Shown: positions 3,321-11,193, counted from the first letter of the stretch. The stretch is DNA of 26,612 nt from Thermodesulfovibrionales bacterium (GCA_041653575.1 JBAZFD010000001.1:1-26612), one strand, 5' to 3'. Translations and numbers: made by a program. The notes: a model not told the origin generated them from the sequence alone.

Positions 3321-4692
3321 GGTCTGCCTCCCTTATCCCCTCACCGGCCATCCAGGTGTCGAAAACCTTCTCCATCCTCATTCCCCGCGAACCCTTTATG
3401 AGCACTACATCTCCCTCCTCTATGATCTCTTTCAGGAGGACTCCGGCGTCCTCTGATTTCTCTGCCATGATTCCCCTGCCGCTGAACTCCTCTACAGCCA
3501 GGGACATAAGAGGACCGACGCCGATGAAGACCTGGACAGGAATGCCCGAGAGCCTCCTGCCCAGCTCCCTGTGGCTGGAAAGGGCGTATTCGCCCAACTC
3601 CCGCATATCCCCGAGCACAGCCACTGCCCTTCTGAACTGTCCTGTTGCCATGAGCCTTTCCAGCTCCCTCACCGCCTGTTCCATGGATGAGGGGTTGGCA
3701 TTGTACACATCATTCAGGAAGGTAGCCCCTCCCTGTTTTCTTATCTCAAACCTCATTCCCACCGGTTCCAGGGAGGCAAGGCCTTCCTGGACCGCCTCAA
3801 GGTCAACCCCTGCAAGGAGGGAGGCCGAGACCGCTGCCAGGGCGTTCAGGACATTGAATCTTCCGTGAAGCCGTGTCTGCACAGGTATCTGCTCATCCCC
3901 CCGGCAGAGGAGAAAGGAGGTGCCCCTCTCGGTGTCTCTGATGTCACGGGCTGTCAGGTCGGCCTCCTTTTCAATGCCGAAGGTAAAAAGCTCTCCTGAG
4001 AACCCGCTCTCTTTTATCCCTTCCATGAGGAAGTCGTCGTCGGCATTGACCACCAGCCTGCTGAGGTAGGGGAGGATCTCCAGCTCAGACTCCCGCACCC
4101 CCTCAAGGGAGCCGAACCCTTCCATGTGCTCATAGCCGATATTCGTTATCACCCCTGTTTCAGGCCGGGCAATGCTGCAAAGGAGCTCCACGTCACCGGG
4201 CCGGTTCGTCCCCATCTCAAGGACCATCACCTTGGTATCGTCGTCCATGCGGGAGATGCAGAGAGGCATCCCGATATGGTTGTTCAGGTTCCCTGTTGTC
4301 TTCAGTACCTGACCTCTCATGCTGATGATGCCGGAGAGGAGCTCCTTGGTGGTGGTCTTGCCGTTGCTTCCCACAACGCCTATGACAGGGCCGGTGAAGC
4401 CCTTCCTCTTTGCAGCTGCTATCTGCTGGAGTGCTGTCAGGCTGTCCTCCACCCTGATGACCGTCCTGCCGGGGATCTCCCAGTCTGTTCCCGAATCCAC
4501 AATCGCCCCGCTGCCCCGCTGAAGTGCCTCTTTCACAAAGGCGTGGCCGTCAAGCCTTTCCCCTTTTATGGCGACGAAAACCTCTCCCTCGCCGATGCTG
4601 CGGGAATCAATGGAAAAGCCGCTGAAGGAGGAAGGTCCTGAAGAGAGGATCTTTCCGCCTGTGCCCTCTATGATCTCATTGAGAGTTACCAT
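3310..4692 (-). CDS. murF: UDP-N-acetylmuramoyl-tripeptide--D-alanyl-D-alanine ligase MurF
   Basis: [58 protein letters not shown] motifs. Confidence 0.97.
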
Positions 4693-6317: not shown

Positions 6318-8024
6318 TCAGGACCTCTTTTTCTCCGACACAAGCAGGAGTCCCTTGTCGCTGGCATCATCCCTGAGCACTCCCAGGTAGGAGAGAGACT
6401 CGTCGGCTATCTTCCTGAAGACCGGCCCTGCCACGATACCGCCGTATATCTGCCCCTTAGGCTCATGGAGGACAACGATCATGGCGATTCTCGGCTGATC
6501 GGCAGGAACAAAACCGACAAAGGAGCTCACAAACTTATCCCTGGAGTATCTCCTCGTCGCCGGGTCTATCAACTGGGCTGTCCCTGTCTTGCCTGCCACC
6601 TGGTTGCCGTCCACCGCAGCCTCAGTTGCAGTGCCTCCCTCTTCGGTCACAGTCTTGAGGATCTCCCTGAATCTCCGGGCAGTCTCCGCTGAGATGACCC
6701 TCTTTTTCTCAGGCTCTGCCCTGAAAAGGGTTCCTCCCGAAGGGCTGCGTATCTCGGACACCAGATGGGGCTTCACAAGACTGCCGCCGTTTGCAATGAC
6801 AGCGTAAGCCCTCAGGACCTGGAGGGGGGTGACTGCCACCTCCTGCCCGATGGCTATTGCGCCGATGGACATACCGGACCACCTGTCAGGAGGCCTCAGC
6901 AGGCCCGAGACCTCGCCGGGGAGATCAATGCCGGTCTTGTTGCCGAAGCCGAATTTCCTGATGTAGTCATAGACCGTATCCTTGCCCAGCTTCAGTGCGA
7001 TCTTGATGGTTCCCACGTTGGACGACTTCTGGATGACCTCCTGGAAGGTGAGAACGCCGTGCCTGTGGGCATCCTTGATCCTCCTGCCGCCGACCTCTAC
7101 CGAACCGGCGCTGCAATCGAACCGCATACCCGGCGTGACAGCCTTCTCTTCCAATGCAGCTGCGCCGACTATTATTTTAAAGGTTGAGCCCGGCTCATAG
7201 CAATCCGTGACCGCCCGGTTTCTCCTCTGGCCGGGTTTGACATTGCCGGGACTGTTGAGATCAAAATCAGGTCTGCTCGCCATGGCCAGTATCTCGCCGG
7301 TATAGGGGTTCATCATAATGGCGGTGGCTGAGGCGGCCTTCCAGTGGGTAGCAGCCTCCTCAAGGTTTTTCTCCAGGATATACTGGAGACCTTCATCAAG
7401 GGTAAGGATCAGGTCATTCCCTTGGATATCCTTTGTCTGTCCCTCGGAGAGGTGATGCCCTTTTGCATCCCTCTGGACATAGAACTCTTCCGGACTGGCG
7501 GTGAGATAGCTGTTGTATTTACTCTCAATCCCCTCAATGCCGCTGTTGTCTATATTCACGTACCCGATGATGTGGGAGGCGAGGCTCCCTTTCGGATAGT
7601 ATCTCTTCATCTCCGGCACAAAGCCGATCCCGCTGAGCTTGAGGCACTTGATCCTCTGGGCCTCAGCCCTGTCCATCTTCCGCTCCAGCCAGATGAATCT
7701 CTTTTTCCCGCTGATTTTCGTGATGATCTCATCAGGCCGCCGGTTGATCTCCCTGGAGAGGGCGCGGGCCATATCAGCAGGAGCCGAGACATCCCTGGGA
7801 TTGCAGAAAAGGGACTCAGTGTCTATATTGATGGCAAGATCCCTGCCTGTCCTGTCCAGGATCATACCCCTCCTGACAGGAATTGACTCCTTTTTTATCT
7901 GCTGCGACTTCGCCCTGGCTGAGTACTTCTCATGATTGAAGAGCATCACATCCACAAGGCGAAGGGAGACGGAAAGGAAGCCGATGAGAACAGCGGTCGT
8001 AAGAAGCAAGGCCCTCGTATTCAT
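6318..8024 (-). CDS. ftsI: Class B penicillin-binding protein FtsI/PBP3
   Basis: RGMILDR, RYYPKG, GIEGIE, YEPGSTFK (SxxK), KSSN (SxN), IAIGQE, AGKTGTAQ (KTG); N-terminal TM; dcw position. Confidence 0.95.
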   Translation of the reverse strand: MNTRALLLTTAVLIGFLSVSLRLVDVMLFNHEKYSARAKSQQIKKESIPVRRGMILDRTGRDLAINIDTESLFCNPRDVSAPADMARALSREINRRPDEIITKISGKKRFIWLERKMDRAEAQRIKCLKLSGIGFVPEMKRYYPKGSLASHIIGYVNIDNSGIEGIESKYNSYLTASPEEFYVQRDAKGHHLSEGQTKDIQGNDLILTLDEGLQYILEKNLEEAATHWKAASATAIMMNPYTGEILAMASRPDFDLNSPGNVKPGQRRNRAVTDCYEPGSTFKIIVGAAALEEKAVTPGMRFDCSAGSVEVGGRRIKDAHRHGVLTFQEVIQKSSNVGTIKIALKLGKDTVYDYIRKFGFGNKTGIDLPGEVSGLLRPPDRWSGMSIGAIAIGQEVAVTPLQVLRAYAVIANGGSLVKPHLVSEIRSPSGGTLFRAEPEKKRVISAETARRFREILKTVTEEGGTATEAAVDGNQVAGKTGTAQLIDPATRRYSRDKFVSSFVGFVPADQPRIAMIVVLHEPKGQIYGGIVAGPVFRKIADESLSYLGVLRDDASDKGLLLVSEKKRS

Positions 8025-8071
8025 CTCTTTATGACTCCATACAGGCTGTTTATACCCTCTCCCGGACCGGA

Positions 8072-8386
8072 CTACGGACGAAAGGATGCCTTGTATGTCC
8101 CTCCGTCCTCCACCCGCTTCACATAGACTACCTTCATCCTGTCGGGAAATACAAACCCGTTGGCAGAGGCGGTCTCGAACTTGTCCACCGAAAGGAGGTG
8201 TGACTTCTGAGCGCCAAGGAGCTTTCTGTCTCTCAGCAATTCCGCCTTTTTTTCCTCAAGCCTGCTGATGGAATACTCCAGAGATACCACGCCGGACCTC
8301 AGCCAGACAAGGGAAAAAACCAGAAAGAGCATGGTAACAACAAAAAAAGGTTTCAGAAATGAGACCGATCTATTTCTCTTTCTCAT
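8072..8386 (-). CDS. ftsL: Cell division protein FtsL-like (bitopic membrane protein with coiled coil)
   Basis: Basic N-terminus, one TM, then leucine-heptad segment; ATGA overlap with rsmH stop; canonical position between rsmH and ftsI. Confidence 0.75.
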   Translation of the reverse strand: MRKRNRSVSFLKPFFVVTMLFLVFSLVWLRSGVVSLEYSISRLEEKKAELLRDRKLLGAQKSHLLSVDKFETASANGFVFPDRMKVVYVKRVEDGGTYKASFRP

Positions 8387-9273
8387 ACCCTCGCTCCTCG
8401 CTTTTCTCCGACCCTGAGCTTTGCGCTCCGGGAAGCCGGATTTCTCCTTACCTCCTCGCGGGACGGAGGCAGGGGCTTTTTGGTTATCAGTTCGATGAGG
8501 CCTCCCCGCGCCTCTTCACGCATGAAATTCTTTACAATCCTGTCCTCAAGGGAATGGTAGGAAATGACGCAGAGCCTCCCTCCCTCAGAGAGAATATCCA
8601 GAGCTGCTGCAAGCCCCTTCCGGAGCTCATCCATCTCACCGTTCACCTCTATTCTCAATGCCTGGAATGTCAGGGTGGCGGGATGGCTCTTTCCTCTCCT
8701 TCTGGAGACCCTGGCAATTAGGTCGGCCAGCTCCTTGCAGGTCTCTATGCGGGCCTTCTTTCTCTGGCTGACGATCTCCCTGACGATCCTCCTGGCAAAG
8801 GGCTCCTCGCCGTACTCCCTGATGACCCTCTCCAGGTCGGCCTCGGGATAGCCGTTCACCACCTCCCAGGCGCTCAGATCCTGGGTCTTGTCCATCCGCA
8901 TATCCAGCCTCTCCTGGGAGAGGAAACTGAATCCCCTCTCCATAGCCTTCAGCTGGAGCATGGAAACGCCGAGATCAAGAAGGACACCGTCAACAGCCTT
9001 TATGCCCAGAGAGGAGACGATCTCCGAAATATTGGAAAAGGCCCCCTTCCTGAGAAAGACCCGCTTGTCGCCCAGAGTCTCCGCTGCGTGCCTGAGCGCG
9101 TCATCATCCTTATCTATACCAATGAGCACACCCTCAGGGATCCTGCTCAGGATCTCCGAGGAATGACCGCCCAGCCCGACTGTACCGTCCAGATATACCC
9201 CGTCAGGTCTGATCCGGAGCATATCCAGAATCTCATCCAGAAGGACAGGGACATGGATCTTCTCATGATTCAT
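8383..9273 (-). CDS. rsmH: 16S rRNA m4C1402 methyltransferase RsmH (MraW)
   Basis: HVPVLL, DGTVGLGGHS, DLGVSMLQL, LDMRMD, FQALRIEVN, ISYHSLEDRIVK, NPASRSAKLR. Confidence 0.98.
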   Translation of the reverse strand: MNHEKIHVPVLLDEILDMLRIRPDGVYLDGTVGLGGHSSEILSRIPEGVLIGIDKDDDALRHAAETLGDKRVFLRKGAFSNISEIVSSLGIKAVDGVLLDLGVSMLQLKAMERGFSFLSQERLDMRMDKTQDLSAWEVVNGYPEADLERVIREYGEEPFARRIVREIVSQRKKARIETCKELADLIARVSRRRGKSHPATLTFQALRIEVNGEMDELRKGLAAALDILSEGGRLCVISYHSLEDRIVKNFMREEARGGLIELITKKPLPPSREEVRRNPASRSAKLRVGEKRGARV

Positions 9274-9418
9274 AAAACTCTCCCTCCCTGCTGCCTATGG
9301 CAGCCTCCTTCTCTATCCGGCAGAGAAGATACTTCACCAGCACCTGCCGCTCTTTCAGGGGGATATCCAGGTAGATAGGAGACTCCAGAAGGACGCTGAT
9401 GATGTCTTCCCTATCCAT
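9263..9418 (-). CDS. Unannotated 51-aa small protein between mraZ and rsmH (MDREDIISVLLESPIYLDIPLKERQVLVKYLLCRIEKEAAIGSREGEFYES)
   Basis: ATG 9418 with GGAG 5 nt upstream, directly after the mraZ TAA; open for 52 codons to TGA 9265-9263; overlaps the rsmH start by 11 nt and fills the whole intergenic gap. Below the 60-aa ORF-track cutoff. Confidence 0.7.
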   Translation of the reverse strand: MDREDIISVLLESPIYLDIPLKERQVLVKYLLCRIEKEAAIGSREGEFYES

Positions 9419-9427
9419 TCTCTCTCC

Positions 9428-9880
9428 TTATAACCCGTATCCTGCAAGAGCGGCCTCAAAGGCCTTTGCGTCAACCTTTGTCGGATCTGTCACAGCATCC
9501 CATTCCGCCCTGTTCCATATTTCTATCTTGTCCAGCTGTCCGACGATAACCAGATCGCCGGATATCCCTGCGTCCTGCCTCAGCTCATAGGGGACCATGA
9601 ACCTTCCCTGCTTGTCAGCCTCACATTCCTGGGCTGAGGCTATAACCCTCCTGAGGTAGAACTTAACTGCCGGATCGGACTTGGGCAGGGCCCTGATCCG
9701 CTCCTCCTGCCTGCCCCACTCCTCAAAAGGATAGACATGGAGGCACTTGTCAAAAGGGGCATTTGTGATATATAGTCGTGAATCGTTGTACTGGGCCAGA
9801 GCATTGCGCAGGGGGGCAGGGATGATGAGCCTCCCCTTCGGGTCCAGAGTGTAGTAATATTTTCCGAGGAAGGACGGCAA
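9428..9880 (-). CDS. mraZ: Division/cell wall cluster transcriptional repressor MraZ
   Basis: Two AbrB-like repeats (LDPKGRLIIP...LR; DKQGRFMVP.ELR), VIVGQLDKIEIWN; TTG start with GGAGG upstream; heads the dcw cluster. Confidence 0.97.
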   Translation of the reverse strand: MPSFLGKYYYTLDPKGRLIIPAPLRNALAQYNDSRLYITNAPFDKCLHVYPFEEWGRQEERIRALPKSDPAVKFYLRRVIASAQECEADKQGRFMVPYELRQDAGISGDLVIVGQLDKIEIWNRAEWDAVTDPTKVDAKAFEAALAGYGL

Positions 9881-9890
9881 TGCTGATCCT

Positions 9891-9916
9891 CCACTTTATG
9901 GCACTTTTTTCCACTT
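9891..9916 (-). promoter_or_regulatory. MraZ-binding direct repeats
   Basis: AAGTGG / AAGTGC / AAGTGG on the minus strand at an exact 10-bp period (9911, 9901, 9891), between promoter and RBS. Matches the known GTGG/TGGG three-repeat MraZ operators. Confidence 0.8.
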
Positions 9917-9918
9917 CA

Positions 9919-9948
9919 ATCTTAGGGATTGAGAAGGCGGGTTGTCAA
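9919..9948 (-). promoter_or_regulatory. sigma70-type promoter of the dcw operon
   Basis: TTGACA (9948-9943) - 18 nt - TAAGAT (9924-9919). Confidence 0.7.
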
Positions 9949-10035
9949 GATTTTTTTTAGGGGAGAATACCGCCCCATATAATGTGGTCAAATTACCACT
10001 GCAATACAATATGATGTACCCTGGAGACCAAAAAG

Positions 10036-11193
10036 GTGTTTTCTGATGAGCTGGCAAAACTCCGATCTTCCTGTCTGTACAGGGAGATCCTGGACAGGGG
10101 GCCCGGCGGATCAACCAGCCGCATCCTTATAGGCGGGAAGGAGCTCATCAGCTTCGCCTCCAATGACTATCTCGGACTCAGCCACGACCCCAGGCCGGCA
10201 GAGGCTGCACGGATGGCTGCTGAAGCATACGGCTTCGGCGCAGGCTCCTCCCGTCTCCTCTCAGGCGGAACAGAGCTCCATGGGCAGCTGGAAGAGGCAA
10301 TAGCCGGATTCAAGGGGACAGAGAAGGCGCTCTGCCTCAACTCAGGGTATACCGCCAATGTGACAGCCATCCCTGCCCTTGCCGGAGCGGGAGACATGAT
10401 TTTCAGCGACGAGCTGAACCATGCCAGCATCATCGACGGCTGCCGCTTGAGCAGGGCGCAGACCGTCATCTACCGGCACAGGGAATGGGAACAGCTCTCA
10501 GCGCTCATGAAGGAACATCAGGGGAGAAAAACGATGGTGGTGACTGACACCGTCTTCAGCATGGACGGCGACATAGCCCCCCTGAGAGAGATCAATGAGC
10601 TCTGCCGCACCCATAGGGCGCTCTTCTACCTTGATGACGCCCACGGCACAGGTGTCCTGGCGGAAGGGAAAGGAGCCCTGGCGCACGCGGGCCTTCAGCC
10701 TGAGCCGCACATCATCCAGATGGGCACCTTTTCCAAGGCCCTGGGCTCCTTCGGCGGCTTTATTGCAGCAGAGGAAAGGATCATCCAATGGCTTGTGAAC
10801 ACAGGAAGGGGTTTTATCTACTCCACCGCCCTCCCTGCGCCGGTCGTCGCAGCATCCCTGAAGGCCTTGAGGATCATCATGGATGATCCCTCTGTGGTGA
10901 AAGGGCTCTGGCGGAAGAGGGCAATGCTCATGGAGGGGATCAGCAACCTCGGGTTTGAGACCCTAAGCACGGAGAGCCCCATAATCCCCCTTGTCCTTCC
11001 CGAACAGAGAGAGAACCCCGGAGACCCTACTGTGACCATTGCCTTTTCCCGACGGCTCAGGGATCTCGGGCTCTACGCGCCCTGCATCAGACCGCCCACG
11101 GTCAGACTGCCGATGATCAGGATATCCGTCACAGCAGCCCACAGAGAGGAGGATATCAGAGCCCTCCTGCAGGGCCTCTCATTTGCGAAATAG
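10036..11193 (+). CDS. bioF: 8-amino-7-oxononanoate synthase (PLP class II aminotransferase family)
   Basis: FASNDYLGL, GAGSSRLLSG, SGYTAN, SDELNHASIIDG, VFSMDGD, DDAHG, GTFSKALG (PLP Lys), IRPPTV, RISVTAAH. Confidence 0.9.
   Translation: MFSDELAKLRSSCLYREILDRGPGGSTSRILIGGKELISFASNDYLGLSHDPRPAEAARMAAEAYGFGAGSSRLLSGGTELHGQLEEAIAGFKGTEKALCLNSGYTANVTAIPALAGAGDMIFSDELNHASIIDGCRLSRAQTVIYRHREWEQLSALMKEHQGRKTMVVTDTVFSMDGDIAPLREINELCRTHRALFYLDDAHGTGVLAEGKGALAHAGLQPEPHIIQMGTFSKALGSFGGFIAAEERIIQWLVNTGRGFIYSTALPAPVVAASLKALRIIMDDPSVVKGLWRKRAMLMEGISNLGFETLSTESPIIPLVLPEQRENPGDPTVTIAFSRRLRDLGLYAPCIRPPTVRLPMIRISVTAAHREEDIRALLQGLSFAK

Follow-up and report, generated by a model that had tools for sequence, protein, structure and literature searches.

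A gene for a small protein of a dispersed family between mraZ and rsmH in the dcw cluster of a Thermodesulfovibrionales bacterium

The mraZ-rsmH junction

The DNA analysed here is a single stretch of 26,612 nt from a Thermodesulfovibrionales bacterium (GCA_041653575.1 JBAZFD010000001.1:1-26612), referred to as the window. It contains the head of a dcw cluster, in which mraZ is followed by a small open reading frame (ORF), rsmH, a 104-aa ORF, the gene of an FtsI-type penicillin-binding protein, two Mur ligase genes and the genes of MraY, a D-Ala-D-Ala carboxypeptidase and MurD. Its gene order and families are those of the canonical dcw head mraZ-rsmH(mraW)-ftsL-ftsI, but the window adds a packed 51-codon gene at a junction where mraZ and rsmH are adjacent or overlapping in 22 of 29 related genera. 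The features concerned, running from the promoter-like site to the ftsI-type gene, are as follows.

9919..9948 (-): sigma-70-like promoter site, TTGACA-18-TAAGAT, upstream of mraZ (consensus match only)
9428..9880 (-): mraZ, first dcw gene, 150 aa, TTG start, TAA at 9430-9428; Pfam MraZ 2.4e-27
9419..9427 (-): 9-nt spacer GGAGAGAGA from the mraZ TAA to the small-ORF ATG, with GGAG 5 nt ahead of the ATG
9263..9418 (-): small ORF, ATG at 9418, TGA at 9265-9263, 51 aa plus stop; family A mini-protein (defined below)
9284..9412 (-): predicted three-helix part, residues 3-45 (helices 3-11, 14-18 and 21-45; AlphaFold2, AF2)
9266..9283 (-): acidic C-terminal tail GEFYES, residues 46-51, low confidence (pLDDT <50); tails vary across the family
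9278..9288 (-): Shine-Dalgarno (SD)-like run GGGAGGGAGAG of rsmH, inside the small ORF, 4 nt ahead of the rsmH ATG
9263..9273 (-): 11-nt overlap of the small-ORF 3' end and the rsmH 5' end, ATGAATCATGA
8383..9273 (-): rsmH/mraW, 296 aa, 16S rRNA methyltransferase family, ATG at 9273-9271; Pfam Methyltransf_5 6.8e-106
6318..8386 (-): 104-aa ORF in the FtsL position (no Pfam match) and 568-aa FtsI-type penicillin-binding protein

The promoter-like site is the probable start of the operon transcript, and a search of 8900-10200 returned no terminator-like sites. The MraZ protein of the window is 53-73% identical to its counterparts in the 29 related genera. The initial annotation had described an ORF that fills the gap between mraZ and rsmH, with an SD sequence directly past the mraZ stop and a stop codon overlapping the rsmH start; its coordinates, SD, start and stop signals are all as described there, and the quoted peptide is confirmed, with EDIISVLLESPIYLDIPLK as a tryptic peptide of the product. 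The GGAG begins 1 nt past the mraZ stop, and the TGA ends 8 nt past the ATG of rsmH, for which a more upstream start is impossible, a stop lying 7 codons ahead of that ATG. With a 9-nt spacer containing GGAG, an 11-nt overlap and a gap devoid of terminator-like sites, the small ORF appears packed as if translationally coupled to both neighbours, as had been proposed.

At the Rfam thresholds the mraZ-rsmH gap gave no match, the sole one at E<=1 being Clostridiales-2 (18.3 bits against a gathering threshold of 58.6), and the covariance model of the mraW RNA motif (RF01746) likewise found nothing in the gap. This motif occurs in Actinomycetales just upstream of rsmH/mraW (Weinberg et al. 2010, PMC2864571); the insert of the window resembles it in being a lineage-specific element just upstream of rsmH, but differs in being a protein-coding gene of a dispersed family. 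The literature, searched for small genes at the mraZ-rsmH junction, yielded nothing specific.

Coding evidence and predicted fold

On their own, 51 open codons in DNA of ~52% GC constitute weak evidence of a gene. Searched with the peptide, 41 related genomes yielded short ORFs sharing a common motif, 16 of which were aligned, each with an SD-like sequence; alignments A1 and A4 define what is named family A in this analysis. The core, which corresponds to residues 2-40 of the window protein and is N-terminal to a variable tail, has the motif (K/R)EI(I/V)SILMES(P/S)LY(F/L)xLxLxERxxL(V/I), in which S13 and R24 are invariant and L10, Y16, E23 and L27 are conserved in at least 90% of members; the window core, EDIISVLLESPIYLDIPLKERQVL, has all six as well as E12. 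A family A profile built without the sequences of the window and of L074, a contig described below, matched the window frame with 51.3 bits (E 2.8e-15), the only match among the 719 frames of the window, whereas the best of 2000 shuffled peptides scored 12.5 bits against the same profile. The GC content of the small ORF by codon position (0.59/0.29/0.67) resembles that of the adjoining genes, and SD-like sequences stand ahead of nearly all family A members checked. Codon-level conservation is also evident: between orthologues of one family A subfamily the differences by codon position are 130:50:208, with synonymous-only differences in 12-17 of 41 codons, and between the window and L074 they are 18:9:22, second positions changing least. 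We conclude from these sequence patterns that 9263-9418 (-) is a real protein-coding gene and not a chance ORF, in agreement with the initial annotation, which had taken it for a genuine, unannotated small-protein gene.

Contigs of other metagenomes were compared with the window in order to follow change within the frame. Near-identical strains keep the ORF, and the flanking parts of mraZ and rsmH are almost invariant among them. One strain contig, covering 9161-9643 (483 nt), carries 11 substitutions, 8 of them in the 156-nt ORF; 2 of these are synonymous and 6 non-synonymous (D2E, R3M, D18E, V26A, Y30H and R44M), no residue conserved in the family is affected, and the ORF runs through with neither stop nor frameshift. 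The SD spacer of nearby strains has an A>G substitution and a 1-nt insertion, with the GGAG kept. A relative ~82% identical to the window reads TAG-GAGGATCTCA-ATG at this place; it retains SD, start codon and, with 10 differences over 63 nt, the N-terminal core, while its C-terminal half has been replaced in frame, measuring 97 nt instead of 88 (+9 nt). As the strains and the ~82% relative keep frame and core, we conclude from their sequences that the small gene is maintained, evolving faster than the adjoining genes. A dN/dS comparison had been suggested as a check: the frame is kept, but with 2 synonymous against 6 non-synonymous changes the strain-level ratio lies near 1 on very few events, which would fit weak constraint or a fast-evolving protein equally.

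An AF2 model computed with a 121-sequence family alignment has a mean pLDDT of 86 for the window protein, with values of 92-97 over residues 1-40. The product had been expected to be helical with turns at an SP and an IP, and the predicted structure is indeed helical with breaks at S13-P14 and I19-P20. According to the model, ~40 residues form a three-helix mini-domain that folds autonomously, and a short acidic tail comes after it. Of the polar residues, the conserved E12, S13, Y16, E23 and R24 fall where the modelled helices meet (S-P-x-Y and P/S-L-x-E-R) and may be capping or packing residues. Searches by PDB sequence profile, Foldseek PDB, Atlas shape and wide VIA-align returned generic helical matches only (Z <=5).

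Family A and the contents of the mraZ-rsmH slot

Neither Pfam nor NCBIfam has a family for the window protein or the 16 family A members, and public records read 'hypothetical protein' (Dissulfurispira, Thermodesulfovibrionales), so that the term 'unrecognised' used in the initial annotation was apt. Its companion, 'lineage-specific', has to be given up, because the family A profile finds 606 clusters (50% identity) at E<=1e-3 among 1.84 billion proteins, 53 of them at E<=1e-10, and 56 of 301 sampled Nitrospirota genomes carry the family, with 1-3 copies each. Lengths among the best 150 of the 606 clusters are 35-120 aa; the window protein, at 51 aa, has the build of a stand-alone member (~35-75 aa, N-terminal core, variable tail), and a search for fused or longer forms of 129-2000 aa found none, which is weak evidence. 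Named contigs assign carriers to Thermodesulfovibrio, Thermodesulfovibrionales, Dissulfurispiraceae, Nitrospiraceae and two 'delta proteobacterium' metagenome-assembled genomes. Judged by these matches, family A occurs in Thermodesulfovibrionales, other Nitrospirota and some other bacteria, with one copy in the dcw operon in the window lineage. A word-index search with the single sequence returned the query itself only, the ESM Atlas feature search gave no usable match, and relatives were found in neither viral contigs nor plasmids.

Across ~90 loci, each family A subfamily keeps its own neighbourhood and none is common to all subfamilies, so that sequence is all that defines the family. Among the neighbours are a cobalamin operon, histidine kinases with sigma-54 regulators and Mo-oxidoreductases, and further an ECF sigma factor, an SLT transglycosylase and an ABC-F ATPase, distributed as follows.

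NWC-ending subfamily: ~80 nt past the tmRNA gene, ahead of a cobalamin riboswitch and cobU/T/S
KY..LL-ending subfamily: adjoins histidine kinase and sigma-54 regulator genes
GYESSW(A)GI-ending subfamily: adjoins genes of an SLT lytic transglycosylase and a sulfite-oxidase-type molybdoenzyme
Other family A loci: adjoin genes of a molybdopterin oxidoreductase, an ECF sigma factor, a polysaccharide deacetylase or an ABC-F ATPase

Taken over all its loci, family A has no recurring partner. Because the neighbours differ from one subfamily to the next and none is family-wide, the pattern argues for a general-purpose small module and not a dcw-specific factor. Radical-SAM genes among the neighbours were considered as a hint of RiPP biosynthesis and rejected, their orientation and frequency looking like background (an estimate, not a computed value).

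Several loci bear observations of their own. The NWC subfamily is found at L054-L057, L046 and L044; at L055, for example, all on the minus strand, the tmRNA occupies 4240-4583, the small gene 4038-4160 and the riboswitch 3538-3727. A 5' element, CCGATAACTAAAGCAAGAAAGGATTCGAAGGAG, is conserved in this subfamily. Between the tmRNA and the small gene of L046 there are ORFs that resemble toxin-antitoxin genes by eye, and in L044 one such ORF lies directly upstream of the small gene; an att-like repeat, that is, a duplication of the tmRNA 3' end ahead of the small gene, was sought in L046 and not found. GYESSW(A)GI tails preceded by an acidic linker occur at L039, L119-L123, L129, L131 and L136-L138.

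We located mraZ and rsmH in 29 related genera.

Gap of -14 to +69 nt between mraZ and rsmH: 22 of 29 genera, nothing between the two genes
Gap of 202-523 nt between mraZ and rsmH: 7 of 29 genera, without a family A member

The tally of genes between mraZ and rsmH that the initial annotation had called for thus went against a fixed association: family A occupies the slot in none of the 29 related genera, the ~90 other loci have unrelated neighbours, and although mraZ is present in all 41 genomes searched, nearly all family A members lie far from it, the copies of the related genomes being on other contigs or at a distance from mraZ. Genome and metagenome collections supplied 65 further loci, of which exactly one repeats the arrangement, the Logan contig L074, where the mraZ TAA is followed by 1 nt (g) and the ATG of a 59-codon ORF whose TGA lies 17 nt inside rsmH. 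Its small protein is 51% identical to that of the window over 39 aa, and its RsmH 60%; a quick, poorly resolved RsmH tree does not group the two. Since L074 repeats the arrangement despite this deep divergence (RsmH 60% identical), the order mraZ-small ORF-rsmH is either old or has arisen twice.

A different conserved ORF of 58 aa, family B, occupies the slot of 5 of the 7 long-gap relatives (at least 5 sister genera). Its sequence pattern is MLTVEEVKEAxKxSPFYEKWG..EEIIxRI..IDPFSLYN..GEVYxG, and it has an AGGAGG-type SD.

Family B loci: L011:2030-2203, L016:2029-2202, L020:1996-2169, L021:1250-1423 (-), L022:1234-1407 (-) and L139-L145

Family B is single-copy and lies within the slot at every locus examined. 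A sampled order-level search found it in two genera only (g9, 5/5; g19, 2/2), to which the slot survey adds three, and it forms 19 clusters in a large protein collection, the named ones being 'hypothetical protein' (NCBI, JGI); the genome of the window itself, 78% complete, gave no match. The AF2 model is of modest confidence (pLDDT 62), with helices at 4-13, 15-20 and 23-36. Family B is like the window protein in slot, bacterial family, small size, strong SD, the SP-(F/L)-Y junction and the order of predicted helices, but unlike family A it is single-copy, restricted to the slot and to few genera, and carries an additional conserved C-terminal part, IDPFSLYN..GEVYxG. Homology between the two families is unsupported, with hhalign probabilities of 3.8% (A1 vs A2) and 7.4% (A4 vs A5), and of the two, family B arguably makes the clearer example of a dcw mini-protein specific to the slot. 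Of the other long gaps, one genus has 219 nt between mraZ and rsmH without an ORF. In another genus (G004), L023:1970-2143 (+) is a candidate third type of slot ORF, 58 aa long with a GAGGAGG SD and without relatives in the 41 genomes searched. Short inverted and direct AGCTCAT-like repeats lie directly past the family B stop in the long gaps of L020 (2170-2210), L021 and L022.

Possible roles of the small protein

In order to rationalise these observations, we consider it reasonably probable that the small ORF is a real gene for a family A three-helix mini-protein, likely coupled in translation to its neighbours and acting as a modulator with a target probably outside the dcw cluster. The gene would probably be transcribed from the mraZ promoter. 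Because its SD begins 1 nt past the mraZ stop, its 3' end overlaps rsmH by 11 nt and the rsmH SD lies within it, ribosomes finishing mraZ would start the small ORF and those finishing the small ORF would restart at rsmH, so that the small protein would be made in step with MraZ and RsmH. That the three-helix protein acts as a small protein-binding modulator is a guess from its size and fold, as is the idea that placement in the dcw operon mainly supplies division-linked expression and does not define the target; the target is probably not dcw-specific, because other family A members adjoin unrelated operons. A role in cell division is possible, though for the MraZ partner or divisome modulator initially envisaged we found evidence of neither function.

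A dedicated component of the dcw operon, binding MraZ, RsmH or a divisome protein and thereby tuning the MraZ repressor or the MraZ/RsmH balance, strikes us as rather unlikely. A family A gene, equally tightly packed, does occupy precisely this slot in two divergent lineages, family B occurs only there, in at least 5 sister genera, with a like helix order and SP-x-Y junction, and the junction is by analogy a plausible site of regulation: MraZ is a repressor of its own operon, and its toxicity in E. coli is relieved when the gene that follows mraZ is co-expressed (bioRxiv 10.1101/2022.02.09.479790, the latter reviewed there). This is outweighed by nearly all family A members lying far from an mraZ that is present in 41 of 41 genomes, by a homology of families A and B that is undemonstrated (hhalign 4-7%), and by the window and L074 standing apart in the poorly resolved RsmH tree. 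With a similarly low probability, the mraZ-rsmH junction of this Nitrospirota family would host a dedicated division-operon mini-protein of either kind, A in the window and L074 or B in at least 5 genera; if so, its task would be tied to the slot, for instance the modulation of RsmH or of MraZ as repressor, and it would be a new dcw regulator, either replaced or no longer recognisable after divergence.

The inserted gene could instead serve in cis as a coupling spacer that ferries ribosomes to the rsmH start, its peptide being nearly neutral here, a reading to which we give a small chance as well. Direct coupling of mraZ and rsmH looks ancestral, because 22 of 29 relatives have -14 to +69 nt between the two genes; the 9-nt spacer, the 11-nt overlap and the rsmH SD within the insert would serve such a function, and the changes among strains are concentrated in the ORF with a dN/dS near 1. 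Against this reading, the window, the strains and L074 all retain every family-invariant residue, although the RsmH proteins of the window and L074 are only 60% identical, and second codon positions are the least changed between these two.

We regard it as very unlikely that family A members are RiPP-like precursor peptides, with a conserved N-terminal leader and a variable C-terminal core for modification or export. Such a design would account for 35-40 conserved N-terminal residues, for C-termini varying with subfamily motifs (NWC, GYESSWAGI) and for 1-3 copies per genome at dispersed sites, but no modifying enzyme, protease or exporter recurs beside the members, no cleavage motif was seen, and for the conserved part the prediction is a compactly folded domain. 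That the spacer is non-coding and open by chance, or that it encodes a structured RNA, is hardly credible: 51 open codons at ~52% GC are not rare, but the profile match (E 3e-15 against at most 12.5 bits for shuffles), a motif common to a large small-protein family and the pattern of substitutions by codon position contradict this, and the Rfam result (best 18 bits against a gathering threshold of 58.6) also speaks against it.

As to how a family A mini-protein could work, Sda (PF08970; PDB 1PV0), a 46-aa helical-hairpin inhibitor of the sporulation histidine kinases of Bacillus, could serve as a model by analogy. It is of similar size, shares a helical hairpin and a local LIES/LMES-YF resemblance with family A, and finds a parallel in the one subfamily adjoining histidine kinase and sigma-54 regulator genes. 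Homology to Sda was considered and rejected: with the Sda sequence checked against 1PV0, hhalign of A4 vs Sda gave 0.3% over 4 columns, PF08970 matched 0 of 16 family A members at E<=5, and Sda was absent from the PDB sequence search, from Foldseek (E<=10) and from the best 50 VIA-align matches.

What is new here is a dcw operon variant with a member of an undescribed mini-protein family. The analysis adds a family of ~40-residue mini-proteins, confidently folded in prediction and comprising hundreds of clusters, that is without a Pfam or NCBIfam model and appears in databases as 'hypothetical protein' or is not called, and it reveals an otherwise rigid mraZ-rsmH junction into which, in a single bacterial family, small genes have repeatedly been inserted. 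Should one of the slot proteins act on MraZ or RsmH, it would offer a route into the relationship between the two; if not, the locus illustrates cleanly how an essential operon can capture a dispersed small gene and preserve its translational coupling.

Minor observations concern both ends of the small gene. An alternative frame is open across the mraZ 3' end in the window (9355-9474, minus strand) and in L074 (38-250), reading MNPCLQDM.../LRPLLQDTGY..., and one public record (P0056, 70 aa) calls the small gene from a start within mraZ, which is a gene-caller artefact. At the other end, the tails of the window protein (GEFYES) and of L074 (GTGYEQWI) resemble a shortened GYESSW(A)GI, a likeness in sequence that hints at a C-terminal docking motif.
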